A stretch of DNA of 64,000 nt from Candidatus Saccharimonadia bacterium (GCA_035479335.1 DATIIU010000002.1:37716-101715); one strand, 5' to 3'. Counted from the stretch's first letter, positions 4,809 to 52,817 are shown. Notes: generated by a model not told the origin, from the letters alone. Made by a program: numbers and translations.

Positions 4809-7037
4809 TTGCCAACTATTAATATGCACATCCTTACTTCGCTTACATATATACCAGTAATTGTTGCAATCGTTATTGTAGCTGCCGCTACCTTTATTTA
4901 TCGAAGTCAAAAATACTTGGCATACTTTTCAGCGCTAGTCTTTATTACTGCACTTTGGTTACTTTGCCAATATATCGCACAGATGTCAATATTAAATGAT
5001 AGGGCGCTATGGACTATTCGTATCAGTAGTGCCTTATCCGGCCTGATCGCATATTTTTTTCTTCTGTTTGCAACGAGCTACACTGGATATCGCCGATGGC
5101 GCACGGTTCGAAACTTCTGTATATTGCCAATATTGGCGTTTGCGCCATTAAACTTTACGAATTTAATGATCCAGCGGGTTGTTACATCGTCCAGCGGTAT
5201 TAGTGTGAAAAGTGCCGGTACCTTATACCTTGTGCAAATTTTAGTGATTTCACTCTATTTTGTGGGTGGAATAGTTGAGTTAGTGCGTTCAACTCTAAAA
5301 GCGCCTCGATACGCGCGAGGCAAAGACTATCTACTAATCTTTGGTGTGGCACAGGCTGTAGTCCTTATTATCATTGCTGCTACCGTTTTTGCCTCGTCTG
5401 ATAAGGCACAGATTATTCTCCCTATCGCTATTTTACTGATGGTTCTCATTGTTGCGTTTGCCGTTATCCGTCATCGACTTTTCGACATTCGTACTGTTGT
5501 TGCGAAGACGCTCATTTATCTGACATCAATACTGTTTCTGGGAATAGTTTATGGTGCGATTTTTCTTGTTGTTGCGGGTGTAATTTTCCATGTCTCAATG
5601 AAATTAGATGTGCAGTTACTGCTAGGTACGGCATCGGCTATTGTTAGTATTTCATTTGCAAGTTTTAAGGATCGGTTCGATCGCCTTACAAGTCGAATAT
5701 TCTTTCAAGACTCATATGATGCTCAAGATCTTTTTGATCAGCTGAATCGTCAGCTTATTGCCACACTAAATCTGGATTTACTACTTCGTGAAGTGTCAAA
5801 AACACTCATCACACATATAAAGGCTCAATTTTGTGTTTTTGAAGTAGATGGTATGAAATACGCAGCGCGTAGAGTAGTGGGGGCGGAAAGTAAATTATCG
5901 GACGAAGATATGGCAGAACTCAAGGCTGCTATTGTGAAGATGGGTAGGCGAGCTGTTTTGGTTAGTGACGTTTTACCGAACAGCCCCATTAAAAGATTAA
6001 TGGATCGTAATGATGTATCAATGGTTTTGCTGCTTAACTCTGCATCAAATAAGCCAAAAGGTGCACTCGGTATGATCATGTTAGGTCCTAAAAAGAGCGG
6101 GAATCCCTATGCCCCTCAAGACATAGCAGTTTTAAGTTCTGTTGCTAATGAGCTAACTATTGCTATTCAGAACTCTCGGAGGTTTGAGGAAATTCAGAGC
6201 TTTAACAAGACTTTGCAGCAAAAGGTTGAACAGGCAACTAATGAGTTGCGCAGGACTAATGATCGGCTTAAGCTCCTAGATGAGACCAAAGACGAATTCA
6301 TCACCATGGCGAGCCACCAGCTGCGGACGCCGCTCACAAGTGTTAAAGGCTACTTAAGCATGGTGCTAGAAGGTGACGCCGGTAAGCTGAACGCTAATCA
6401 GGAAAAGCTGCTGGAACAGTCATATCTAAGCTCGCAGCGCATGGTGTATTTGATATCCGACCTTCTGAATCTGTCACGGCTTAATACTGGTAAATTTGTG
6501 ATCGAGCCGAGTGAAGTAGACTTAAGCGAAGTGGCGCAAGTAGAGGTGGATCAACTGGATGAGACGGCAAAAGCACGTAATCTAAATTTGATCTATGAGC
6601 GCCCAGATTCCTTCCCAAAGCTTATGCTGGATGAGACTAAGATCCATCAGGTGGTTATGAACTTTATAGACAATGCAATCTACTACACACCCAGTGGCGG
6701 CACTGTTACAGTAGCGCTGCGTGAGACACCGGCGGCAGTTGAGTACACAGTGAGAGACACAGGCATTGGTGTGCCAAAGGCAGTGCAACACAAGCTATTC
6801 ACTAAATTCTACCGAGCGGGCAATGCCCAGCAAGCACGTCCAGATGGCACTGGCTTGGGCCTGTTTATGGCTAAGAAAGTGGTAGCAGCGCAGGGCGGAG
6901 CGATCATATTTGAAAGCGAGGAAGGCAAGGGGAGTACCTTTGGTTTCCGGTTTAATAAAGCTGACCATGCTATCTCTGGTGCAGTAGGCAAAACAAACCA
7001 GCCTAAGGACGCGCACAAGCAGCCCTCGCATCATTAA
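4809..7037 (+). CDS. membrane sensor histidine kinase (multi-TM sensor, GAF-like region, HisKA, HATPase_c)
   Basis: 742 aa. About 7 N-terminal TM helices, H-box ASHQLRTPLTSVKGY, N-box NFIDNAIYYT, G-boxes RDTGIGV and GTGLGL. TTG at 4809; an in-frame ATG at 4824 is an alternative start. Confidence 0.9.
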   Translation: MPTINMHILTSLTYIPVIVAIVIVAAATFIYRSQKYLAYFSALVFITALWLLCQYIAQMSILNDRALWTIRISSALSGLIAYFFLLFATSYTGYRRWRTVRNFCILPILAFAPLNFTNLMIQRVVTSSSGISVKSAGTLYLVQILVISLYFVGGIVELVRSTLKAPRYARGKDYLLIFGVAQAVVLIIIAATVFASSDKAQIILPIAILLMVLIVAFAVIRHRLFDIRTVVAKTLIYLTSILFLGIVYGAIFLVVAGVIFHVSMKLDVQLLLGTASAIVSISFASFKDRFDRLTSRIFFQDSYDAQDLFDQLNRQLIATLNLDLLLREVSKTLITHIKAQFCVFEVDGMKYAARRVVGAESKLSDEDMAELKAAIVKMGRRAVLVSDVLPNSPIKRLMDRNDVSMVLLLNSASNKPKGALGMIMLGPKKSGNPYAPQDIAVLSSVANELTIAIQNSRRFEEIQSFNKTLQQKVEQATNELRRTNDRLKLLDETKDEFITMASHQLRTPLTSVKGYLSMVLEGDAGKLNANQEKLLEQSYLSSQRMVYLISDLLNLSRLNTGKFVIEPSEVDLSEVAQVEVDQLDETAKARNLNLIYERPDSFPKLMLDETKIHQVVMNFIDNAIYYTPSGGTVTVALRETPAAVEYTVRDTGIGVPKAVQHKLFTKFYRAGNAQQARPDGTGLGLFMAKKVVAAQGGAIIFESEEGKGSTFGFRFNKADHAISGAVGKTNQPKDAHKQPSHH

Positions 7038-7166
7038 ACTGCTTATGGTATAGCATTGACTTTTTAGCCTCCTTATGGTATATTTATAACATCCTTGTGA
7101 CGGAGCGTAAGAGATAACTCTGTGACTGGTGCGGCAGAAATGCTTTACAGATAGGAATAACAAAAA

Positions 7167-7193
7167 CAACAGATGGAAACGTCTGTTGCTTTT
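7167..7193 (+). terminator. intrinsic terminator of the kinase gene
   Basis: CAACAGA-tggaaacg-TCTGTTG hairpin followed by CTTTT. Confidence 0.6.
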
Positions 7194-7822
7194 ATGTTAA
7201 GACTACTGGGCCCACAGTTCCGCCTTCAGGGGTACTTTGACAAATCAGATCATTACAGTACATAACGCCTATATCTACCAAGATGTAGGTTGTTACGTGT
7301 ATATCAGGGCAGAACAGAGGTAGGGAAGGCTGGCTAGCATTATCCGGCTAGCGCTTGGCGCTAGTATTCCTTGTTTCTGGTCTGCTCTGGTTGAGCGTTT
7401 TTGTGAGGGCTATAACTAGCCATCCAATAGTAGCTCCCGTAGCAGAAAACTGTAACGCTTACTTTTAAATCTATGTGCTAATTAGGTAACTAACTAGAAC
7501 AATTGGTTTTGCAATTTTAGTGTATGGCAAAGCAACTATGTACAAAGATAGGAGTTTTCCTGAATGACTTTAGGAGAGGCAATTGTGCTCAGCTACAAAA
7601 ACAGTAGCCGGGTGCGGTTGCCTTTCCTATCGGCACAATAGGAATTACCTCGCTTTGTGCATTGCAGCCGCATGTACAAACTGAAGGACAAGCAGACAGA
7701 TTCACCAGCACCATCGTGCCGCAACTGTGCAAAAGACATCCGCGTCCTAGCGCAGACTCCCATCCGCCTGCTTCGGGAATCTCCCGAACAGACCGTCCGC
7801 AAGGACAGAGAAGGGTTACGCC

Positions 7823-8728
7823 ATGACCACCATGGACATCCGCGAGGAAGAGCTCCGCGAAGCTCTCGACTACCGCTCAACTGGCGGTGACGCCGGGTTC
7901 ATCGACGCGCTCTACCGTCGCGGCCACAGCGTCGAGACCATCCGGCGCGTGCTCGGCACGGTCAACAGCTACGACTCCGACTACTCGGACGAGGAGCTCA
8001 TCGCCGACCTGTTCGACTCGCACCGCGCCCTGAAGGACCGCGTCGACCGGCATGACATCATGTTCGCCGAAATCTTCCGTCGCCTCGACGACAAGGTCTC
8101 CAAGCGGACGTGGGCCGTCTCCATCATGGGATGGGCCGTGATGACCGTGCTGCTGTTCCTCCTCGACTGGCCCGGCACCAACGCGGCCGCGCACATCATC
8201 CAGGTGGTCTTCGGCTTCGGCGTGTTCTGCTTCGTGATCTACGCGGGTTCGCGCAACACGGAGCGCTCGTCCGACAACCGGAACCGCTGGACCCGTTCCA
8301 GGAACCGCTCCCGCGGCTCTCGCTCCGCTCACCCGGCACCCCGTCCCGCCGCTGTCCGCCCGCCGTCCCGCCCGGGTTCCGACACCGATCGTCCCGACCG
8401 CTCCCGCGGCTCGGCACGCTCGGGCGTCCTCCCTCGCGTCGGCGGCGAGCCCCGTACCTCCCTCGACGATCTCCTGGAAGGGTCTCACGTCGATGAGTAC
8501 CCCGTGGACGACGTCCATGAGGAGATCGAAGCTCGTCGCACCGACCCCAACGTGGGGAACGCCTTCGCCCACCTCGGCCCCGAGTCCGGCGTCGTCGGTT
8601 CCACCCCTGTCGGCTCCGGCCGTCCCGCCGCTGTCCGCCCGCCGTCCCGCCCGGGTTCCGACACCGGTGGCTCCCGTCCCACCCGCAGTCCCGCCGACGA
8701 CGTCTTCTTCAACCAGGACGAGGACTAG
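7823..8728 (+). CDS. high-GC hypothetical membrane protein with Arg/Pro/Ser-rich disordered tail (island A)
   Basis: 301 aa. GC3-rich codons, two central TM helices (WAVSIMGWAVMTVLLFLL, IIQVVFGFGVFCFVIYAG), repeated RPAAVRPPSRPGSDT. GAAGGG lies upstream of the ATG. Confidence 0.6.
   Translation: MTTMDIREEELREALDYRSTGGDAGFIDALYRRGHSVETIRRVLGTVNSYDSDYSDEELIADLFDSHRALKDRVDRHDIMFAEIFRRLDDKVSKRTWAVSIMGWAVMTVLLFLLDWPGTNAAAHIIQVVFGFGVFCFVIYAGSRNTERSSDNRNRWTRSRNRSRGSRSAHPAPRPAAVRPPSRPGSDTDRPDRSRGSARSGVLPRVGGEPRTSLDDLLEGSHVDEYPVDDVHEEIEARRTDPNVGNAFAHLGPESGVVGSTPVGSGRPAAVRPPSRPGSDTGGSRPTRSPADDVFFNQDED
8341..8676 (+). repeat. 47-bp perfect direct repeat (8341-8387 and 8630-8676) inside the island A ORF
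   Basis: CCGTCCCGCCGCTGTCCGCCCGCCGTCCCGCCCGGGTTCCGACACCG occurs twice, 289 bp apart, in the same frame. Confidence 0.9.
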
Positions 8729-8797
8729 TTGGTAGTTCGTACCACCTGACACTTGCGACCAGCGCCGCTGAGTTCGCCCGAACTAAGGAAGACAGTA

Positions 8798-10078
8798 ATG
8801 AGCAAAAGGACTTCGCGTTCCGGCGCCCTCATCGGCCTCGGATTCACGGCGGTGGCCGTGACTGCGCTCTGGCCGGCTATCAACAGCTCGGCTTCGGCCA
8901 ACGGCCCCGGCAAGCCCGGATCATCCGCCTCGGCCACGGCTTCCGCCACCGCCACCGGTTCGACCACCAGCCCGACGACCACCGTCACGACGTCCGCTCC
9001 GGCTCCCGCCGTGGCCAAGTCGTGCGACATCACCGGGATCGTGTTCTACCACAAGGATGCCACCGGCGACGACTTCGGCCCCAAGCCGACCGTCACCGAC
9101 TCGGCTTCAGCTGGGAAGCACTTCGAGGACAAGTTCTGTCCGTCCAAGGGCGCCAGTGACCCGTCGTTCGCCGCCGTGATCATCACTGCGCACGCACGAG
9201 CGGTCGCGACGCACACGAGCGGAGTCGACTCCACCACCGTCACCCAGGCGCAGGCTATGGCCACCGCGTGGGTCACCGGCAAGGACACCACCGACTGGAC
9301 CTCCAAGGTCACGGTCTTCGTGAAGACGATCGCCTCCTACGAGGTCAAGCAGGACAACAACCCGGTCTACTCCACCTTCAACATGCAGGGCGGCAAGGAC
9401 GGCCAGCCCACGCTGACCTTCACTGACAACGTGAACCACCCGGCCGGCCTGGTCGTGGTGATCCACTTCAACGACGGAACTCCGGACATGACGCTCCGGC
9501 TCGACTGCGACCTGCAGCCGACAACGGACGTCGCTGTGACGCCGAGCCCCACCACGGGTCCGACGACGCCGCAGCCGACGGGTTCCCAGGCGCCGCCCTG
9601 CACCACCTGCGGTGGCACCACGCCGTGCACGACCTGCAAGACCAGTACCACCCCGCCCCCGTGCGGAAGTGCGTGCAACCACACGACGCCGCCGACCACC
9701 CGGCCGACGACGCCGTCTTCACCGCCCCACAGCACCACCCCGCCCCCGCCGGCTCCCAAGCCCGCGCCGCTCATCGTCGACTACACTCGACTGAACGACG
9801 TGGACGCCGGACAGAGTTCACCCAACTACCGGGTGATCGTCCAGTTGGCCAGCGGCGACAGTGGCACACTGTGCATCAGCTCGGCCTACGGGTCGATCAG
9901 CACTCCGTGCTTCTCGGTCGGCGGCGGTGTCACCACCAAGTACGTGACCTACACGGCCCCGTACGACGCCGGCACCGGATCCGACACCATCACGATCAAC
10001 CTGACCGACAACACTCTCGGCAAGACGGTCTCGGCCTCGGACACCTTCAAGGTGAACCCGCCCCCGGTCCGGCCGTAG
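8798..10078 (+). CDS. high-GC secreted protein with Thr/Pro-rich and Cys-containing linker (island A)
   Basis: ATG at 8798 preceded by AAGGAAG. Signal peptide MSKRTSRSGALIGLGFTAVAVTALWPAINSSASA. The linker TPQPTGSQAPPCTTCGGTTPCTTCKTSTTPPPCGSAC separates two beta-rich halves. The ORF-track start at 8753 lacks an RBS. Confidence 0.65.
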   Translation: MSKRTSRSGALIGLGFTAVAVTALWPAINSSASANGPGKPGSSASATASATATGSTTSPTTTVTTSAPAPAVAKSCDITGIVFYHKDATGDDFGPKPTVTDSASAGKHFEDKFCPSKGASDPSFAAVIITAHARAVATHTSGVDSTTVTQAQAMATAWVTGKDTTDWTSKVTVFVKTIASYEVKQDNNPVYSTFNMQGGKDGQPTLTFTDNVNHPAGLVVVIHFNDGTPDMTLRLDCDLQPTTDVAVTPSPTTGPTTPQPTGSQAPPCTTCGGTTPCTTCKTSTTPPPCGSACNHTTPPTTRPTTPSSPPHSTTPPPPAPKPAPLIVDYTRLNDVDAGQSSPNYRVIVQLASGDSGTLCISSAYGSISTPCFSVGGGVTTKYVTYTAPYDAGTGSDTITINLTDNTLGKTVSASDTFKVNPPPVRP

Positions 10079-10091
10079 TACCCGGCGTGCC

Positions 10092-10183
10092 CCTCGGTGA
10101 GCTCACTGCTTCGGCAGCGGACGTTCGCTCAACGCTTCGGCGATGAGAAGACGGCCGTGGGATTCCCCATGAGCTCACCGGGG
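10092..10183 (+). terminator. GC-rich nested inverted repeat 3' of island A ORFs
   Basis: Outer 14-bp stem CCTCGGTGAGCTCA (10092-10105) / TGAGCTCACCGGGG (10170-10183, one G-T pair). Inner hairpin CTGC-TTCG-GCAG (10106-10117). No T-tail. Confidence 0.4.
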
Positions 10184-10417
10184 CCACCCGATGACAGTTA
10201 GTGATATTTAGTCACGCAATTCTCCCAATAGGGATCCGAGTTGCGTGTGAGCATATAGTACAAGAGTACAACAAGCGTTACAGGCGTGTGTTAGAGAGGG
10301 TAAGCGACAGCTTACATTTTGCCTTACGGCATCAAAAACTCTCTGCACTAACCCTTAATGTTTTGTAATGATCTGATTTGCAGAGAAGGTTTCAAGCTAG
10401 GTTACTAGCTCGCAATT

Positions 10418-10446
10418 TTGACAGATTATAATTATTATGCTACAAT
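10418..10446 (+). promoter_or_regulatory. sigma70-type promoter for the LPXTG gene
   Basis: TTGACA (10418-10423), 17-nt spacer, TACAAT (10441-10446). Confidence 0.45.
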
Positions 10447-10574: not shown

Positions 10575-11570
10575 ATGTCTAAATTTTCCAAGCTTGCTGC
10601 TTTAGTTGCAGCAGTTCCTATGCTTGCCTTTGCGGCACCAGTTTTGGCTGATAGCCCTGGTCAACTGCAAACTGGCCCAAACACGTACCTAGTAAAGAAC
10701 CTAACCCAAAAGGGTGGCTACGCTGCTACTGCCAGCGCAACTACTTGTAATGATGAAGTAGAGTACAGCATTGAGCTACACAACACTGAATACAGCAAGC
10801 TTTCTAGCATTGTAGTAAGTACTACGCTGCCAACAGGCACTACTAGCAAGTCAGACATGACTGCCACTCCAGCAAGTGGTGGTACAACTGGCACAAACGG
10901 CAGCGTTACCGTAACGGTTGGCACTAACCAGACTCTTACTTACGAAGCAGGTTCTACTCGTCTATACGATGGTAGCGCTAAGCTCATCAAGACTTTGCCT
11001 GATGGTATTACCACTAAGAACGGCGTAAATGCTGGCGACCTAGCCGGTTCTACGACTGAGTTCTTGAACTTTACTGCTAAGGTAACATGCCAAACCACTC
11101 CGCCCGTAACTCCAGCTTACAGTTGTGACCTACTACACGTAGTAGCTGACAACACTACTCGTAAAGTAACTGTTGACCAGTTTAAGACCACCGCAACAGG
11201 TGGCGCTACATTCCAGAACGCAGTGATCGACTGGGGTGACAAGGCTACAACTGGCTCTTTGACCGCACTTGTTGGTCAGGGCCACCAGTACACCGCAGAC
11301 GGTACCTACAAGATTGTTGCTACTGCTAACTTTAGTGTCGGTGGTGCAACCAAGACCGGTGCATGTACACAGACAGTAACGTTCACTAGCACTCCTACGC
11401 CTCCTGTAACACCTCCGGTGACTCCACCAGTTACCCCTCCTGTTACTCCTCCAACAACACAGTTGCCAAACACAGGTGCAGGTGATGTCATTGGCATCTT
11501 TGCTGGTGTTGTAGCTGTCGGTACTATTGGATATCGGCTGTTCTTGAGCCGCAAGCTTGCTCGTCGCTAG
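10575..11570 (+). CDS. sortase-anchored (LPXTG) surface protein with PKD-like domain
   Basis: Signal peptide. PKD-like VIDWGDKATTG...GHQYTADGTYKIVATAN. A (PPVT)4 linker. C-terminal LPNTG plus hydrophobic stretch plus RKLARR. Confidence 0.85.
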   Translation: MSKFSKLAALVAAVPMLAFAAPVLADSPGQLQTGPNTYLVKNLTQKGGYAATASATTCNDEVEYSIELHNTEYSKLSSIVVSTTLPTGTTSKSDMTATPASGGTTGTNGSVTVTVGTNQTLTYEAGSTRLYDGSAKLIKTLPDGITTKNGVNAGDLAGSTTEFLNFTAKVTCQTTPPVTPAYSCDLLHVVADNTTRKVTVDQFKTTATGGATFQNAVIDWGDKATTGSLTALVGQGHQYTADGTYKIVATANFSVGGATKTGACTQTVTFTSTPTPPVTPPVTPPVTPPVTPPTTQLPNTGAGDVIGIFAGVVAVGTIGYRLFLSRKLARR

Positions 11571-11664: not shown

Positions 11665-11992
11665 CTATCTATAGGGCAATTATTGCCAAGTTGGCAAAGA
11701 CTGTGGACAAGTACTAGCGTAATACGTAAAACTATGCTAGTCTGTCACACAGAAGTAAAAAGAGAGTACTCGTGACTGACCGCTCTTAAATTCCCCTATG
11801 CTAGCGCAAGGGGATTTTATTTTTGTATCTGTTGTGATATAATTTTCGAGTCGTTTTTGTTATATAGAAACTGGCAGAATCTGGCTCATGCGCTTATGAC
11901 CCAGAAACCTTGGCCTCATATGCAAAGCATATGAACCCGTTCGCTCGGAAGATAATTTTATGTGAGCATAAAATGTGTCTTCCTTCGCTTAC

Positions 11993-12067
11993 GGCCTCAT
12001 CGTCTAGCGGCTAGGACACCGGGTTTTCATCCCGGCAACCGGAGTTCGATTCTCCGTGAGGTCACCA
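11993..12067 (+). tRNA. tRNA-Glu(UUC): tRNA-Glu (anticodon UUC), CCA encoded
   Basis: Cloverleaf folded by hand. Acceptor GGCCTCA/TGAGGTC, anticodon stem CCGGG/CCCGG with loop TTTTCAT, T-arm GGAGTTCGATTCTCC, 3' CCA. Close to the E. coli tRNA-Glu pattern. Confidence 0.93.
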
Positions 12068-12082
12068 ATTGAAATAATAGAT

Positions 12083-12167
12083 CAAAAAGAGTTCGACAAT
12101 TTATTTTGTCGAACTCTTCATTTTTCGCCATCTCTGTAAAATGAGTTTCGATTCACTTTGGGTGGCT
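12083..12167 (+). repeat. copy 1 of an ~85-bp imperfect direct repeat (terminator hairpin plus tRNA-3'-end-like remnant)
   Basis: CAAAAAGAGTTCGACAATTTATTTTGTCGAACTCTT...CTCTGTAAAATGAGTTTCGATTCACTTTGGGTGGC. The hairpin 12089-12116 plus T-run also acts as the tRNA terminator. Confidence 0.75.
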
Positions 12168-12294
12168 TCGCTCGTATTTTTAAGCCTAGCAATAGATGTT
12201 CGATTGGATAAATTAAGTCTGCAAAAGTACTTTATAGACACTAGACACTTGAGTGGTAGTACTTTATAATTCCAAGCAAGGACTATAAAGTACT

Positions 12295-13401
12295 ATGAAG
12301 CCAGATCCAACAAAACCCTACAACGCCTTACCTCACCTACCGCCTGAAGTGGACCTGAAAGATCAGCGATTATTGCTAGCTGCTTTAGAAGCAAGTGAGG
12401 CGATAGCCGAGCTTAAAACAATGCTGACATTAAGTAGTCGCAGCGTCAGTAATACTGTCGATTTGCTCTCACCTCTATTTGTCCCAGAAGCGGTTTCGAG
12501 TTCGGGTGTGGAGAATATTATTACGACGAATAATAGCGTTTACATAGCCAAAATCCTAGAAGAGCGTGAGTTGAGCCCTGCAGAGAAGGAGGCACTTAAC
12601 TATACGAGCGCGCTTGGAAGTGGTATCCAAATTCTAATAACTAAGGGTTTCTTGGCGACAAATGATTACATAAAAATGCAAGCAATATTGGAGCCCAACA
12701 AAAAAGGTGTTCGTAAATTGCCTGGTACGCAACTTGCGAATCCCGCAACCGGTGTCGTTTATTACACTCCTCCTGAAGGTGAAGAACGTATTCGTGGTTT
12801 ACTCAAAAATTTTGAGGATTACTTTAACGACGAGGCTCCCATTCACGAAGTATTTGCGCGAATGGCGATGCTGCACTATCAATTTGAGGCTATCCACCCC
12901 TTTAGTGATGGCAATGGGCGTACGGGTCGCATGCTCATGCCACTCTACCTTATGAAGCAAAAACGGCTTCCCCTACCAGTGTTATTCATTAGCCACTATA
13001 TCTTAGAACATCGTGATGAATATTATAAAAAGTTACGTGCCGTAACTTCAGACGGTAACTGGATGGAGTGGATTCTCTATATTACTATCGCAACTACCGA
13101 ACAAGCAAGGTATACATGTCAGATCCTAGAGAAGATAAGACGTGCTATTGAGTCGGTAAAAAAAACTCTGAAAGAAAAACTTCCTGCGGTCTATAGTTCA
13201 GAACTTATCGATTTCCTATTTTCAAACGCCTACTTCACACAGAAGGGTTTTGAAGAAGAAATAGGTGTTAGCCCCATGACGGCCCGCCGCTACCTCCAAG
13301 AGCTTGAGCGAGAGAAGGTGATAGTCAAGCAAAAACAGAATGGCAAGAATCGATATTTATACATCACGCCACGTTACATCGGCATTCTTAAGCAAGCTTA
13401 G
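12295..13401 (+). CDS. Fic family protein (AMPylator class with N-terminal inhibitory helix and C-terminal wHTH)
   Basis: 368 aa. Fic motif HPFSDGNGRTGR. N-terminal (S/T)xxxE(G/N) inhibitory motif SSGVEN. Confidence 0.92.
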   Translation: MKPDPTKPYNALPHLPPEVDLKDQRLLLAALEASEAIAELKTMLTLSSRSVSNTVDLLSPLFVPEAVSSSGVENIITTNNSVYIAKILEERELSPAEKEALNYTSALGSGIQILITKGFLATNDYIKMQAILEPNKKGVRKLPGTQLANPATGVVYYTPPEGEERIRGLLKNFEDYFNDEAPIHEVFARMAMLHYQFEAIHPFSDGNGRTGRMLMPLYLMKQKRLPLPVLFISHYILEHRDEYYKKLRAVTSDGNWMEWILYITIATTEQARYTCQILEKIRRAIESVKKTLKEKLPAVYSSELIDFLFSNAYFTQKGFEEEIGVSPMTARRYLQELEREKVIVKQKQNGKNRYLYITPRYIGILKQA

Positions 13402-13557
13402 TGAGCTGTAGGCTCATTCATTGGCGACCTAGGGTATATCGTTGCTCCTGGCTCAATCACGCCAAGCATCTTCAATCGTAACTCAATATATTTTACCTCA
13501 CTGAAGAGGGCTTCGACCCTAGCCACCCCTAGGTTCACCATATGAGATTTACAGAGA

Positions 13558-13638
13558 CAAAAGAGTTCGAAGATTTATTTTCTCGAACTCTTTTTGTTAT
13601 GTAACTCTGTTAGTCGGGTTCGATTCTGCTTGGGTCAC
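13558..13638 (+). repeat. copy 2 of the ~85-bp repeat
   Basis: CAAAAGAGTTCGAAGATTTATTTTCTCGAACTCTTTTT...CTCTGTTAGTCGGGTTCGATTCTGCTTGGGTCAC. The last 25 nt resemble the tRNA-Glu T-arm/acceptor GGAGTTCGATTCTCCGTGAGGTCAC. Confidence 0.75.
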
Positions 13639-13678
13639 ACGGCGATTAAATATATCAGCTAGATGGTATTATTAAAAA

Positions 13679-14209
13679 ATGAAAAAAGCCGTATTCGTCA
13701 CAGCCGTTTCGGGCTCTGGAAAAACGACAGTCTGCAAGGCTTTGGCTGAACTTGGTTACGAAGCGTACGATATCGAGAGTATCCCTGGCTTATTCTCGTT
13801 AGTCGATGAAGACACGGGTCAGATCATATCAAAAGAAATCGGTGACCTTAAAGAAGGTCTTAATGCCGATTGGGTGTGCGATATCCAAAAGCTAAAAACC
13901 ATAATCATCAATCAAAAAGCTGAGATAGCATTTTATTGCGGCGGTACAAGCCGTACCGAAGAGCTCATGGTGGCATTTGATTGCACAATCGTATTGCAAG
14001 TCTCGGACGAAACGACACGAGCAAGACTCGCTACCCGCGGAGCAGGTGAATTCGGGAGCACGGAAACGGTCAGGGACTGGGTCATAAGCTGGAAGCATAG
14101 AGTGGAGTCGGATTGGCTATCTGCGGGTGGAATTAGTGTTAACGCCGAACCAGAGCCTAGCGCAGTCGCTCAAAATATTATTGATCGATTCGCAAACGGC
14201 TCACAATAA
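13679..14209 (+). CDS. P-loop NTPase / small-molecule kinase-like protein
   Basis: 176 aa. Walker A VSGSGKTT near the N-terminus. Size and layout match adenylate/shikimate-kinase-like AAA proteins. Confidence 0.7.
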   Translation: MKKAVFVTAVSGSGKTTVCKALAELGYEAYDIESIPGLFSLVDEDTGQIISKEIGDLKEGLNADWVCDIQKLKTIIINQKAEIAFYCGGTSRTEELMVAFDCTIVLQVSDETTRARLATRGAGEFGSTETVRDWVISWKHRVESDWLSAGGISVNAEPEPSAVAQNIIDRFANGSQ

Positions 14210-14355
14210 TCGCTCAGCCTAGGAAGATAGCACTAACCTTGCCTCATACCAGCACATGATTTCTGCCGCAGCAACCTTATAAATCGGGTGGGCTAGGGCC
14301 ACTACGTAAGCGCATGCTTATTGACGAGAATAGTTTACAGTAGTACATATAAGTC

Positions 14356-14934
14356 ATGATGAAAATAAAAAACAAACAAGACGGCTTTACTCATATTCTA
14401 CTGCTAGCTGTAATAGGTGTGCTAGTAGTCGGTATCTTCAGCGTTGTTTATGTAAAAGTTAATAATGCCTCAGATAAAAAGAGCGTAAATAGTGATGCTA
14501 CTAAAAATACAAGTACGTCAAAAAAGACTACTGTTACCCCAGTTGCGCTTGCTCCGGCGGATAAAGCAACCACGGTGACTCCCAAAACGACGACAACAAC
14601 TCCTACCACTAACTCAACTCCCACGGTAACTCCTAAAAACGCTGCGCCGATTAAGACAAGCCCGGCATCAAACATCGTTCACCCCACAATCGCCAACTGT
14701 AATCGACAGAACTTCACTGTTTATGCTAGCGTACCTTCTGGGACACCGGCATACAGCGAAGGTAATTTTTCTCAAGTGCTTTACACGTGGCCGTATGGCT
14801 CAGCAATTACTGATGTGTACTGTGACTCCGGCGATAGCAAACAGATGGTCTTTCGCGTAGATAATCCGGGTTCCCCTGATACCACCCAGTACAGTGCCTA
14901 TCATTGGGCTGATGTGAGCTTAACCAAACCCTAA
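14356..14934 (+). CDS. membrane-anchored hypothetical protein with Thr-rich linker (prepilin-like N-terminus without Glu+5)
   Basis: 192 aa. KQDGFTHILLLAVIGVLVVGIF resembles a class III signal (G|FT) but lacks the conserved Glu. T/P-rich spacer and a Cys-containing globular C-terminus. Confidence 0.6.
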   Translation: MMKIKNKQDGFTHILLLAVIGVLVVGIFSVVYVKVNNASDKKSVNSDATKNTSTSKKTTVTPVALAPADKATTVTPKTTTTTPTTNSTPTVTPKNAAPIKTSPASNIVHPTIANCNRQNFTVYASVPSGTPAYSEGNFSQVLYTWPYGSAITDVYCDSGDSKQMVFRVDNPGSPDTTQYSAYHWADVSLTKP

Positions 14935-14973
14935 TTAGGAAGTAGTTTGACTCTGTGTGGGGCACACTATATA

Positions 14974-15516
14974 TTAGATGGCCTTTTGATGATAGCGGTA
15001 GGTTGGTGACTCTATAACTGTCATCGGAGATTTGAAGCCTACGGGGTTACGGGCATACAGCTGCCGATGAAGGCCATTCGTTGCAATAGGCGCATACTGA
15101 ATAGGCGCAACCTCTACTTTCGTGCCATTCTTACCCGGTGCATGCACGTACGACTCTGCGTCACGAACGATACCAATATGAGTAGGGAAAGTTCCATGAC
15201 GCGAAAAGAATATGAGGTCTCCAGATTCTTGTAGCCCGTCGTGAACAGTCGCACCATAATGGTCCCAGAAATCATTGGCATGACGTAAGGTTCGGCGAGC
15301 GTTATCCTGCCCGATAAAGTCTGGAATATGTAGTCCTGCTTCAGATAGAACAAATCGTACAAAGCCGGAACAATCAAAACCCGATGAAGGTGACTGTCCG
15401 CATTCAGGATGCTCGGGTACATATTTTATTGAAGGACGATCAATTAAACCATTAGCTACGCTAATGATTGCTTCGCGGTAATTTTCTGCAACACACTCCT
15501 CAGTAATTAGACGTTT
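14974..15516 (-). CDS. NlpC/P60 family cell-wall cysteine peptidase; open frame lacks ATG/GTG/TTG at its 5' end
   Basis: My own translation of the minus strand gives ...RPSIKYVPEHPECGQSPSSGFDCSGFVRFVLSEAG...GDLIFFSRHGTFPTHIGIVRDAESYVHAPGKNG... with the Cys-His-His signature. The frame is open from the stop at 15517-15519 to the TAA at 14974-14976. It is not in the supplied ORF track. The track's ORF 15114..15422 is the wrong frame of the same DNA. Confidence 0.7.
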   Translation of the reverse strand, partial: KRLITEECVAENYREAIISVANGLIDRPSIKYVPEHPECGQSPSSGFDCSGFVRFVLSEAGLHIPDFIGQDNARRTLRHANDFWDHYGATVHDGLQESGDLIFFSRHGTFPTHIGIVRDAESYVHAPGKNGTKVEVAPIQYAPIATNGLHRQLYARNPVGFKSPMTVIESPTYRYHQKAI

Positions 15517-15742
15517 TTAGAGAGAATGCAGCCTGACTACTGAAAACTTGACCAGGTCGTAGTGTGTTTATTGACTAACATAAGAAAGCACCAGCTTATA
15601 ATTTTCTTTAGTATACACGAAGGGCCACATCTACTAGCGCCTAACAGCGCATGCTAGCAAATGATTGCAACGATAATTGAGTATAAAACGGATGGCCTAG
15701 GGTCGCCATACAAGATCAGCAAACACCATAGCAGTGGCGATG

Positions 15743-15776
15743 AAACCTTCACATTTTGTGGAGGTTTTTATTATTT
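15743..15776 (+). terminator. orphan intrinsic terminator-like hairpin
   Basis: AAACCTTCACA-ttt-TGTGGAGGTTT followed by TTATTATTT. No annotated plus-strand gene lies upstream. Confidence 0.4.
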
Positions 15777-15860
15777 AAAGTGTAGTTGACCTTAGGCTCT
15801 TGAACTTGATAGTCTGAAGCACAGGCGATTTATATAAACATATGCAAAGTGAGGGGCTGT

Positions 15861-16502
15861 ATGGTAGAGGCTGTTTGTTTAGATGTTGGTGAAACGCTCA
15901 TAAATGAAAAACGAGTATGGGCTATGTGGGCCGATTGGCTCAAAGTACCCAAGCATACCTTTTCTGCTGCGCTGGGTGCGGCCATAGTTCGGAATGATTT
16001 TTTGAGTGTTTTCAAATCGTTTAGGTCTGATTTTGATCTTGAAGATGAGTTTGCAGCAAGGCGACGCGCGGGCAAGCTGTGGAAACCTGAAATAGCTGAT
16101 CTGTATGCTGATGCTCAGCCCGCAGTGCATCAACTTGGGGCGCTTGGGATACGTGTTTGTATCGCTGGCAATCAAGAAAGCAGTATGGGTTCATTCCTGG
16201 AAAGGGCATTCCCAACCGCTGACGTTATTGCAACATCTGAAGCATGGGGTGTTAGCAAACCATCGCCTGATTTTTTTGCAAAGGTATGCTATGTATTGGA
16301 TTTACCGCCCGAAAAGATTGTTCATGTTGGTGACCGGCCGGATAATGATGTATATCCGGCTCAGGAAGTCGGGATGCCGACCGTACAGGTGATGCGCGGA
16401 CCCTGGGCGTATATTCTCGATAAGCCTACAGGGCTTGCCTTGCCGCATGCGACTATCCAGTCTCTGGGCGAATTACCAGGTGTGCTTGCGGATCTTGGAT
16501 AG
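15861..16502 (+). CDS. HAD-superfamily hydrolase-like protein
   Basis: Motif I region CLDVGETL (second Asp replaced by Gly). Motif IV HVGDRPDNDV. ATG at 15861 follows GAGGGG. The track start at 15849 is a GTG without an RBS. Confidence 0.7.
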   Translation: MVEAVCLDVGETLINEKRVWAMWADWLKVPKHTFSAALGAAIVRNDFLSVFKSFRSDFDLEDEFAARRRAGKLWKPEIADLYADAQPAVHQLGALGIRVCIAGNQESSMGSFLERAFPTADVIATSEAWGVSKPSPDFFAKVCYVLDLPPEKIVHVGDRPDNDVYPAQEVGMPTVQVMRGPWAYILDKPTGLALPHATIQSLGELPGVLADLG

Positions 16503-16622
16503 TGTATTGCAGCTTGATGGTTCTTTGACTTGTTAGCAATTCACTAGAATTATTCCAAGTTAGAGAAGTTTGACGGATTGCTTTGTTGTATACTAGTATT
16601 CTTAAATACTTGAGGATACTGT

Positions 16623-17120
16623 ATGTCAATTGAAACAGATACGCAGGGTGAGTTTGGTGGCTATCTTTCAACAACTCTTGACGATCCTGGTAGATGGATG
16701 AGGTCGCGGATGGGAATATTGGTTTTATCTAGATCAACTGCGCCAAGTGGTAATCAGGTTGCTGTACGTTTTGGATTTCCAGATGTGGAATCCAGTATAA
16801 AAGGATTTAGAGATAGGCGAGGCTGGCTTGTAGCGTCAGAGATTGCAGGAAAACGGCGCCTTGATATCGTGCCGGACCAGTCTTACTTAGCAGACTATCG
16901 TGGTGGGATTCATCGACTTCCTGATGATACTACGGCGTTACGGAATATTGGACGTGGGATATTGCTCCTGACAACCAATCCCGATGAGGATGGTGTAGTT
17001 GTTGAGATGACAGTACCTTGCAACCACAGAATCAACGCACTAGATGTTGCTACATTAAATGGCGAATCTCTGATCCCATATGAATCGTTGCAGTTCGCAG
17101 AAGACCCCGTTGCTGATTGA
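16623..17120 (+). CDS. hypothetical protein
   Basis: 165-aa ORF with backbone composition. No motif recognised. Confidence 0.5.
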   Translation: MSIETDTQGEFGGYLSTTLDDPGRWMRSRMGILVLSRSTAPSGNQVAVRFGFPDVESSIKGFRDRRGWLVASEIAGKRRLDIVPDQSYLADYRGGIHRLPDDTTALRNIGRGILLLTTNPDEDGVVVEMTVPCNHRINALDVATLNGESLIPYESLQFAEDPVAD

Positions 17121-17289
17121 TTTCTCCCCAAAGAGTAGCAGAAATGCGCAATCTAGTATTTCCGAAGTCTCCGTTTTAGCTCAAAGGCTTCTTAGCGTGT
17201 TAATGTAACCTTTTCATGACAAGTTCACAATTCTTTGTAGCCGGTTCCAACGCTTATGGTAAAATATCAGAAAGAATAAGGGATATCAT

Positions 17290-52109: not shown

Positions 52110-52817
52110 ATGGATACGACCGCATACCAACAACTAGCAAAAGAAAAACTAGGTGGTGAATTTAAGAATCTTGATCTCCTGATCACGGCTTTGACGCACC
52201 GCAGCTACTTAAATGAGCACCGTAACACGGTAAAAGAACATAATGAACGTTTGGAATTTTTAGGCGATGCGGTGCTTGAACTAGTCGTGACTGAATTTTT
52301 GTATGGTAACTACACCGAGCCGGAAGGAATTCTAACCAACTGGCGAAGCAGCTTGGTACGGACCGAATCAATCGGAGCGGCTGCGGATCGGCTTGGTTTT
52401 GAGTCGCTGCTGCGTTTAAGTCGCGGCGAAAAGCGTGGGACCGAGCGCGCTCGAGCTCAAATATTAGCTAATAGCTTTGAGGCGGTCACCGGTGCTCTGT
52501 ACCTAGATAAGGGCTACGAGGCTGCCAAGACCTTCATTACCGATAATATTTTAAGTACCTTTAGCGAGATTTTAAAAAGTGGCTCCTGGATGGATCCCAA
52601 GAGTCACCTACAGGAGGTAGTGCAGGCACAAGGTGGCTCAACGCCGCAGTATAAGGTTATGGCGGAAGAGGGACCTGATCACGATAAGACCTTTACCGTC
52701 GGTGCCTATGTTGATGGTGTGATACAAGGGCAAGGTGTTGGACCTAGTAAGCAAGCAGCACAAGTCGCTGCCGCCACTGCTGCGCTTAAAAAATATGCCA
52801 ATAAGCAGGATAATTGA
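52110..52817 (+). CDS. rnc: ribonuclease III
   Basis: Signature ERLEFLGDAVLELVV plus a C-terminal dsRBD. Confidence 0.95.
   Translation: MDTTAYQQLAKEKLGGEFKNLDLLITALTHRSYLNEHRNTVKEHNERLEFLGDAVLELVVTEFLYGNYTEPEGILTNWRSSLVRTESIGAAADRLGFESLLRLSRGEKRGTERARAQILANSFEAVTGALYLDKGYEAAKTFITDNILSTFSEILKSGSWMDPKSHLQEVVQAQGGSTPQYKVMAEEGPDHDKTFTVGAYVDGVIQGQGVGPSKQAAQVAAATAALKKYANKQDN

Follow-up and report, generated by a model that had tools for sequence, protein, structure and literature searches.

The window analysed here is a stretch of 64,000 nucleotides (nt) from a Candidatus Saccharimonadia bacterium (GCA_035479335.1, DATIIU010000002.1:37716-101715), the genome of which, referred to below as G000, comprises 1.15 Mb in 8 contigs; positions are counted from the first letter of the window. 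Between a histidine kinase (HK) gene and a gene encoding an LPXTG surface protein lie two open reading frames, ORF1 and ORF2, in a block of high GC content that an earlier, sequence-only reading had taken for a foreign island. The sharp compositional contrast on which that reading was based was borne out. In consecutive 200 nt intervals the GC content is 0.37-0.44 up to 7600, 0.60-0.75 at 7700-10199 and 0.42 past 10200; log-odds segmentation placed the limits of the block at 7740-10190 (2451 nt, 67.4% GC), and the interval 7.69-10.19 kb has a GC content of 67%, compared with 44% in the flanks and 47.7% in the whole genome. The GC content of third codon positions (GC3) is likewise 0.87 in ORF1 and 0.88-0.89 in ORF2, against 0.42 in the HK gene and 0.40-0.41 in the LPXTG gene. 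The foreign origin, by contrast, was not upheld. We consider it probable, though by no means assured, that the block forms the coding interior of a locus that is old, single-copy and vertically inherited in a family of soil Saccharibacteria (Saccharimonadia), and that this interior is enclosed by a conserved frame of RNA structure. Judged from sequence, the two conserved ends of the frame most likely base-pair with one another in RNA. The parts of the framed unit are as follows.

7056-7084, + strand: sigma-70-like promoter of the framed unit (TTGACT-17-TATATT), from a promoter scan
7085-7239, + strand: 5' segment from the promoter to the L arm, with a hairpin at 7167-7188 and a weak U-tract (a terminator-like site)
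7240-7265, + strand: L arm, the 5' strand of helix H1, one half of an inverted repeat
7303-7463, + strand: structured leader core, with a homologous core in 11 loci (alignment A3)
7450-7460, + strand: 5' strand of helix H2, CTGTAACGCTT, which ends the leader core
7471-7479, + strand: candidate 5' strand of helix H3, CTATGTGCT, with its partner at 10250-10258
7693-7822, + strand: GC-rich inner 5' untranslated region (UTR), 59% GC, the rise in GC beginning 130 nt before ORF1
7823-8728, + strand: ORF1, 301 aa, from the ORF call
8798-10078, + strand: ORF2, 426 aa, starting at an ATG with a good Shine-Dalgarno (SD) sequence
10083-10190, + strand: GC-rich branched 3' hairpin after ORF2, without a U-tract
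10250-10258, + strand: candidate trailer strand of H3, AGCATATAG, read from the sequence
10273-10283, + strand: trailer strand of H2, AAGCGTTACAG, an 11 nt perfect complement of 7450-7460
10284-10355, + strand: trailer stem-loop, a long stem followed by ACCC(C), from 10 trailer sequences
10356-10381, + strand: R arm, the 3' strand of H1, the other half of the inverted repeat

The arms and the structured frame

A repeat finder recovered the arms as a 23 nt pair, 91% complementary, at 7241-7263 and 10358-10380. This is the sole such pair in the genome, and a search for longer terminal repeats found no similarity between the arms beyond 23-26 nt; all the other pieces of the frame are single-copy as well. 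When 251 genomes of the family were searched with the pattern of the L arm, exactly one match per genome was found in 21 of them, representing 13 genera, whilst the reversed control had no matches. Hence the arms mark a conserved single-copy locus, rather than a proliferating element. In every genome that has the GC-rich block the arms bracket it, with L on the + strand after GGGGTAC and R on the - strand; such a block lies between the same arms in 21 loci, although the type of cargo differs from genome to genome.

The pairing of the arms as helix H1 was assessed by aligning both from the 21 genomes, giving 26 columns and 546 cells, and comparing the alignment with 500 shuffles. Pairing is possible in 88.5% of the cells, as against 81.8% in the shuffles and 32-38% in slid registers. 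Both sides have changed in 14 of the 26 pairs, and 41 cells are compensatory, compared with 15.3 +/- 2.9 in the shuffles, none of which reached the observed measures. Examples of such changes are the replacement of TTACA/TGTAA by TTTTA/TAAAA in G024, and TTAGAT/ATCTAA in G124. Wobbles are also unevenly distributed: G:U pairs, readable in the sense strand, account for 42 cells, and A.C pairs, readable in the antisense, for 17 (25 to 8 in the core, with one conserved G:U left out). This excess speaks for pairing of the sense strand, either as RNA or as DNA.

Upstream sequence is available for 12 loci, and every one of them has the promoter TTGAC[T/A]-17-TATATT or a close variant ahead of the L arm core: the distance is -177 to -189 nt for nine loci, whereas three have it nearer, at -84 to -139 nt. 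The L arm was itself considered as a promoter, and rejected, as the TTGACA inside it lacks an acceptable -10 and the canonical promoter lies farther upstream. The 5' segment between promoter and arm is partly alignable to the sequence of another genus (G024), and could possibly represent a separate small RNA, or an attenuator preceding the frame. The spacer to the left of the genes had been described as an ORF-free stretch of 420 bp; it is indeed free of ORFs, but measures 785 nt (7038-7822) and holds both the conserved promoter and RNA structure.

Within the leader core, the words GCAGA..., TCTGCTCTGGTTGAG, GCTCCC and GTAACG are invariant across genera. The leader helix P1, formed by 7309-7320 with 7364-7375, is paired in 95% of cases, with 7 of its 12 pairs changed on both sides, and 0 of 500 shuffles reach the observed values. 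Further contacts join the leader to the trailer. The H2 pair ranks near the top of the leader-trailer helices for 7 of 19 genomes, and a pairing equivalent to that of H3, CTATTTGC with GCAAATAG, was seen in other genomes by eye, without a formal count. The stem of the trailer also appears to covary when judged by eye and uncounted, having AGAGAG/CTCTCT here and GGAGATGG/CCATCTCC in others.

The GC-rich hairpin that follows ORF2 had been noted as a 14 bp outer inverted repeat around an inner CTGC-TTCG-GCAG hairpin, and the repeat finder recovered exactly this arrangement (10092-10105 with 10170-10183), which folds at -64.5 kcal/mol (z = -5.2). The changes found there in G011, a congener in which the whole locus can be compared, preserve pairs, such as CUCA/UGAG becoming CUUC/GGAG. 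Across the non-coding sequence as a whole, identity to G011 is 58-100% by segment, and 78-100% in the parts of the frame, despite the near saturation of silent sites between the two genomes:

7038-7239: 85%
L arm: 100%
7266-7480 (leader core with the H2 and H3 strands): 78%
Hairpin segment 10079-10195: 91.5%
Trailer: 83%
R arm: 92%

A search of Rfam 15 with the leader, trailer and hairpin gave nothing at the gathering score, and a single chance-level match at E <= 1. A terminator scan found no strong terminator before the R arm. RNase III is encoded elsewhere in the window, at approximately 52173-52556.

In one congener, G006 (locus L041, G006:C17, approximately 920-975), the arms lie side by side and form a short hairpin, flanked by the kinase gene and an LPXTG gene; GC-rich cargo, leader core and trailer are all missing. 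A canonical promoter precedes the hairpin by 84 nt, and a strong terminator follows it. This may be either an 'empty' version of the locus or the remnant of a small RNA.

Age and base composition of the block

In a search of 60 related genomes, both ORFs were found adjacent to one another in G011, where the order of HK, ORF1, ORF2 and LPXTG gene is that of G000. A contig break falls inside the Thr/Pro/Cys stalk of ORF2 in G011, but both GC junctions lie within its contigs and align colinearly with the window. The age of this arrangement can be gauged from pgk, the product of which is 96% identical between the two genomes: the proportion of synonymous differences (pS) is 0.73 and the synonymous divergence (dS) about 2.6, such that synonymous sites are near saturation, and identical residues use the same codon in a fraction 0.48 of cases against a random expectation of 0.38. 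Codon sharing at identical residues is also mostly randomised in ORF1 (0.76 against 0.61) and ORF2 (0.69 against 0.56). Values of GC3 in G000 and G011, respectively, are:

ORF1: 0.87 and 0.89
ORF2: 0.88 and 0.89
pgk: 0.48 and 0.49
HK gene: 0.42 and 0.45
LPXTG gene: 0.40 and 0.48

As the silent sites have turned over whilst GC3 is unchanged, any leftover foreign signature should have decayed, and hence the block is not a recent import. The presence of homologues of both ORFs, with similar GC content, at the same locus of a congener refutes the core of the foreign-island interpretation, which had itself singled out such homologues as telling against it. The ACAGAT word at the left junction, ACAGATTCACC, had been likened to the repeat arm of a cassette; it has no inverted partner, and is deleted from the orthologous sequence of G011, hence it is no cassette arm. 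The repeat that does bracket the block is farther out, at 7240-7265 and 10356-10381.

The block is not confined to this pair of genomes. Four more congeners (G010, G009, G001 and G008) have a GC-rich block of one or two genes with a GC3 of 0.6-0.94, and the same kind of one- or two-gene block is found in other genera (G024, G078, G086 and 13 more genomes), followed in all of these genomes, congeners included, by an AT-rich gap and then by one or more LPXTG genes of ordinary GC content. Five relatives from metagenomes were looked up in their contexts: P0002, P0004, P0009 and P0012 are encoded directly behind a HisKA kinase, whilst the gene for P0005 has an ORF1-like gene on one side and an LPXTG gene on the other; the GC3 contrast recurs in all five. 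An exhaustive HMMER scan of 1.84 billion representative proteins revealed 58 relatives of ORF2, of which about 10 share its N-terminal domain and about 40 its C-terminal domain, the latter always at the C terminus. A word-indexed search of 5.8 billion proteins returned one partial relative of ORF2 and none of ORF1, relatives of which are present in L047, L048 and L042. Neither the protein scans nor the contexts of the relatives looked up revealed a homologue of either ORF outside Saccharibacteria-type contexts; phage searches gave no match, and the profile of the C-terminal domain found nothing in a collection of species-representative genome contigs. No description of the locus was found in the literature searched.

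The unusual composition extends beyond the codons. The GC content is 0.44 in the outer leader, 0.59 in the inner 5' UTR (7693-7822), 0.69 in ORF1, 0.67 in ORF2, 0.67 in the hairpin region (10079-10195) and 0.44 in the trailer; codon-level selection alone is therefore a poor explanation for the high GC3, since the inner UTRs are GC-rich as well. Among ORFs of at least 150 aa, GC3 is bimodal genome-wide, with 889 at 0.30-0.70, none at 0.70-0.75 and 14 at 0.76-0.94. Third positions in ORF1 and ORF2 comprise C at 0.54-0.64, G at 0.23-0.34, T at 0.07-0.10 and A at 0.03-0.04. The 14 GC3-rich ORFs lie on both DNA strands, and in every one of them C exceeds G at third positions of the coding strand, so a strand-symmetric bias alone does not fit either. 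Mutagenesis by a reverse transcriptase, similar to that of diversity-generating retroelements, was considered as the source of the A-poor codons and rejected, because the genome encodes no RVT_1 domain and T is depleted too. The interior, including its non-coding inner UTRs, is kept at a base-composition equilibrium of its own (GC3 of around 0.88, with C-ending codons). Islets of at least 60% GC number about 28 in the genome, spread across four contigs.

Alternative explanations

Such a composition might have been acquired long ago by the ancestor of the family, through transfer from a lineage of high GC content that was followed by domestication within a native RNA frame and maintenance of the composition. 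We regard this as unlikely, though it deserves serious consideration. The hosts of cultured Saccharibacteria are Actinobacteria, the discrete class of GC3-rich genes has codon usage of the actinobacterial type, and the GC boundary falls within the UTRs, as though foreign DNA had been inserted into a native frame. However, even the exhaustive HMMER scan revealed no actinobacterial relative, and the transfer leaves the undecayed GC3 unexplained. It is in any case compatible with the present-day mechanism proposed below, rather than opposed to it.

A rather more doubtful proposal is that the composition is itself part of the mechanism, framed messages forming a distinct class in reduced genomes, with their interior and UTRs held at a separate nucleotide equilibrium (GC3 of around 0.9 and a C-rich sense strand). 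Through such compositional insulation, the GC-rich interior would fold upon itself and could not compete with the AU-rich strands of the frame, which would thereby find their partners across 3 kb; the message would also be poor in AU-rich RNase sites. Were this true, the 14 GC3-rich ORFs would be native genes under selection at the RNA level, not relics of transfer.

Other explanations take the inverted repeats to act in DNA. Repeats of roughly 20-30 bp in inverted orientation around surface-related genes are a hallmark of invertons, and the 26 bp repeats, lying at both ends of surface-related genes, might be recombinase sites at which the 3.1 kb segment is flipped to give phase variation; as the outer promoter is outside the segment, flipping would switch the genes off. 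This explanation is disfavoured, and appears improbable, because the segment has one orientation in 21 of 21 assemblies and no recombinase is found among the ORFs at 4.8-13.4 kb in G000. Moreover, the excess of G:U over A.C wobbles, and leader-trailer helices that are unrelated in sequence, fit RNA rather than recognition by one DNA-binding protein.

We give still less credence to the idea that the two genes are the cargo of an integron-like cassette, or of a non-autonomous transposon bounded by terminal inverted repeats. Repeats that surround compositionally distinct cargo of a type that varies between genomes, and the side-by-side arms of G006, which resemble an empty site, are what such an element could produce. 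Yet each genome has a single copy, the position of which does not vary; the ORFs called around the locus include neither a transposase nor an integrase, RVT_1 was not found in the whole genome, and the ends of the arms show no target-site duplication. Just inside the arms, the leader and trailer are conserved structured sequence rather than cargo. An integron cassette is similarly at odds with a single unit that has no integrase ORF at its locus and has a repeat on either side, beyond the conserved UTRs.

When a reduced genome contains a sharp GC island, recent transfer is the usual interpretation; the donor here would be of high GC content, for example an actinobacterial host or its phage, and there would have been too little time for amelioration. 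The 67% GC, the GC3 of 0.87-0.89 and the C-ending codons do have an actinobacterial look, the 14 GC3-rich ORFs form a discrete class in a bimodal genome, and ORF2 possesses an Ala/Ser-rich signal peptide and a Thr/Pro linker, both of which are common in Actinobacteria. Recent import is nevertheless effectively excluded by the orthologous pair in G011, which retains its locus and GC3 across near-saturated silent divergence, and by the occurrence of the module in 21 genomes of at least 13 genera, with no homologue found in a donor lineage or phage. No integrase or transposase was found among the ORFs of the locus, and neither flanking direct repeats nor a tRNA were found at its borders, the nearest tRNA being at 11993, beyond the LPXTG gene. 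Hence, whilst the block resembles horizontally acquired islands and morons in its sharp compositional contrast and self-contained expression signals, it differs from them in being orthologous and syntenic across genera and single-copy, with neither mobility genes nor a donor. As the contrast has outlasted near-complete silent turnover in two lineages and is shared across genera, composition by itself is misleading in this case.

Least credible of all is an assembly chimera or contaminated bin, in which a piece of an actinobacterial contig was joined in: sharp GC steps in a metagenome-assembled genome might raise the suspicion, but the block is internal to a 262 kb contig and both GC junctions are colinear in the G011 contigs, three Logan assemblies, JGI and ENA contigs and 19 other genomes, and their reproduction by so many independent assemblies makes a chimera effectively excluded.

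The old, framed locus favoured here may also be compared with the loci for surface polysaccharides. O-antigen and capsule loci are hypervariable regions of atypical, low GC content that encode enzymes between conserved flanking genes. They share with the present locus a long-kept atypical composition and a content that varies among relatives, whilst position and flanks are conserved; the differences are that the interior here is of high GC content and encodes orphan envelope proteins, and that the flanks are structured non-coding RNA.

Proteins, neighbours and a possible role for the frame

The two transmembrane (TM) helices and Arg/Pro/Ser-rich tail that had been ascribed to ORF1 agree with its predicted architecture. 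An all-helical N terminus with the motif FIDALxRRGxSxxxIxxVL, common to its relatives, is followed by TM helices at aa 94-113 and 121-147 and then by the disordered tail, which contains an internal 67 nt repeat (8341-8407 and 8620-8686). The distribution of charge suggests that both ends are cytoplasmic, hence ORF1 is probably an N-in/C-in envelope protein, the head of which is helical and cytoplasmic and the tail disordered and basic. An AlphaFold2 (AF2) model had a predicted local distance difference test (pLDDT) score of 55, too poor for a fold search. Identity to the G011 protein is 47%, with a ratio of non-synonymous to synonymous divergence (dN/dS) of about 1.0. Two copies of a motif of approximately 22 aa are present in the tail in both G000 and G011 (L009), and are closer within than between genomes, implying concerted evolution or repeated duplication in this disordered region. 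On one metagenome contig (L048, 8721-10477), an ORF1-like gene (431 aa, GC3 0.89) follows the LPXTG gene with an L arm and promoter of its own, and an ORF2-like gene lies directly behind the kinase; the genes for ORF1 and ORF2 can therefore be framed separately.

The start codon of ORF2 is most likely the ATG at 8798 rather than the TTG at 8753, and the 426 aa product is the form on record in the protein collection. A Sec signal peptide is followed by a Ser/Thr/Ala-rich low-complexity spacer, an alpha/beta N-domain ending in LRLDCDLQP (the CDxQP being invariant in the family; pLDDT of about 80), a stalk and a beta-sandwich C-domain (pLDDT 97). Hence the signal peptide, linker and beta-rich C-terminal half were correctly identified by the sequence-only reading, but the N-terminal half is predicted to be alpha/beta, rather than purely beta. 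The Thr/Pro stalk contains six cysteines (CxxC...CxxC...CxxxC, encoded at 9590-9680), the order and spacing of which are kept in G011, and which suggest a stalk that is stapled by disulfides or binds metal; repeated DCHTNGTCP units occur in relatives. Compared with G011, the N part is 56% identical in aa sequence (dN/dS 0.57) and the C part 46% (dN/dS 0.65). When the model was searched against PDB and BFVD using Foldseek, the C-domain matched only generic immunoglobulin (Ig)-like, PapD or MSP sandwiches (E of about 1e-4) and nothing was found for the N-domain. ORF2 is thus predicted to be secreted and to carry an Ig-like domain at the end of a Thr/Pro/Cys stalk. It has no sortase signal, the C terminus being ...FKVNPPPVRP, and LPNTG occurs only in the product of the next gene. 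The N-domain was considered as a divergent paralogue of the N-terminal 'CGNPV' domain found in the adjacent LPXTG proteins, and this was rejected (hhalign probability 0.14%). Across the family the parts of these proteins are shuffled: the N terminus is either a signal peptide or a multi-pass membrane domain, and the C-terminal module is either Ig-like or a Cys-rich 'YGPGYSG...NQCY'.

The genes on either side of the frame, and the signal that separates the second from it, are:

4809-7037, + strand: 7TM-HisKA histidine kinase (Pfam HisKA_7TM, HisKA and HATPase_c), GC3 0.42
10418-10446, + strand: promoter of the LPXTG gene (TTGACA-17-TACAAT), outside the frame
10575-11570, + strand: wall-anchored LPXTG (LPNTG) surface protein, host-like in GC content and a constant downstream neighbour

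The block had been placed in a surface-protein neighbourhood, with the promoter of an LPXTG gene to its right, and this stands. An LPXTG-type gene lies behind the R arm in the loci examined, the protein itself being 85-89% identical in aa sequence to that of G011. Orthologues of the HK are present in 14 of 14 congeners, and in this genus its gene is the one next to the module on the upstream side. In comparison with G011, its non-synonymous divergence (dN) is 0.84 in the N-terminal half, the 7TM sensor, and 0.06 in the C-terminal catalytic half; the sensor is as hypervariable as the ORF1 and ORF2 proteins, which suggests that it coevolves with them or with a ligand of the host. The combination of a hypervariable sensor kinase, fast-evolving orphan envelope proteins and wall-anchored proteins makes this a candidate host-contact module, and judging by this context the ORF1/ORF2 pair is most likely part of the cell-surface or host-contact apparatus of an epibiont.

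Beyond the LPXTG gene, at approximately 11900-17250, about 5 kb of the G000 sequence is additional or rearranged compared with G011, and includes a tRNA-Glu and a Fic gene; colinearity resumes at about 17250. At L051 (G078, 8762-10297, minus strand), a 511 aa ORF with an N terminus like that of a large serine recombinase lies around 2 kb downstream of the module; it occurs in this one genus, and was not seen at other loci.

The promoter at 7056-7084 would drive a single transcript of approximately 3.3 kb, from about 7091 to beyond 10381. In this RNA, the AU-rich 26 nt stretch near the 5' end (7240-7265) would pair with its complement behind the genes (10356-10381), and H2, the covarying leader domain and the stem of the trailer would together complete a non-coding frame around both genes. 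Such a clamp could set the fate of the message through RNase III processing of the 26 bp duplex, as occurs in rRNA precursors, or alternatively by shielding both ends from RNases, as in the hbs mRNA; by analogy with these systems, a role in processing or in end protection may be envisaged. The arms resemble the RNase III stems of rRNA operons, and the sites of phage T7 early mRNAs, in that distant complements form a duplex of more than 20 bp around a loop of kilobase size; as in rRNA operons, the duplex covaries, and RNase III is encoded in this genome. They differ from the rRNA stems in enclosing a two-gene protein-coding message, in being AU-rich, with cleavage a matter of conjecture, and in the additional leader-trailer helices and structured leader at this locus.

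Pairing between the ends of a single mRNA is also known from the icaR message of Staphylococcus aureus, in which the 5' UTR pairs with the 3' UTR. In the Bacillus subtilis hbs mRNA, a 14 bp interaction of the 5' UTR with the 3' UTR modulates cleavage by RNase Y (PMC5737220). In these cases too, long-range pairing of the ends of one mRNA controls access by RNases or translation, but the messages are short and monocistronic, and the pairings, of no more than 14 bp, touch the cleavage site or the SD sequence. The main helix described here is 26 bp long, spans 3.1 kb and is conserved across genera, and 560 nt separate it from the first start codon downstream.

Several points weigh against the proposed RNA frame and its age, or temper them. 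One H1 position has an A.C mismatch in four genomes, and a single protein that recognises both sites in DNA could also give rise to covariation between the arms. The P1 strands were delimited manually, using the invariant GCAG/CTGC anchors, and the assessment of H3 and of the trailer stem was visual. A weak terminator-like hairpin at 10300-10315, before the R arm, could end some transcripts early, and both the co-transcription of the arms and any cleavage are what we infer from sequence alone. An ancient actinobacterial origin of the genes is conceivable, though unlikely. Searches of Pfam, NCBIfam and PDB sequences gave no significant match for ORF1, ORF2 or the family profiles, such that the functions suggested for the proteins derive from architecture and neighbourhood.

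Saccharibacteria are obligate epibionts, and the manner of their contact with the host is largely unknown; the genes enclosed by this frame are candidates for a part in it. The persistence of their composition further indicates that some process holds a small class of genes at a compositional equilibrium of its own. The structured leader and trailer, which are unknown to Rfam, represent a concrete and testable RNA element of the candidate phyla radiation. If the proposed pairing is correct, a 26 bp helix closing a coding message of 3 kb would extend end-clamping of the type found in rRNA to mRNAs.

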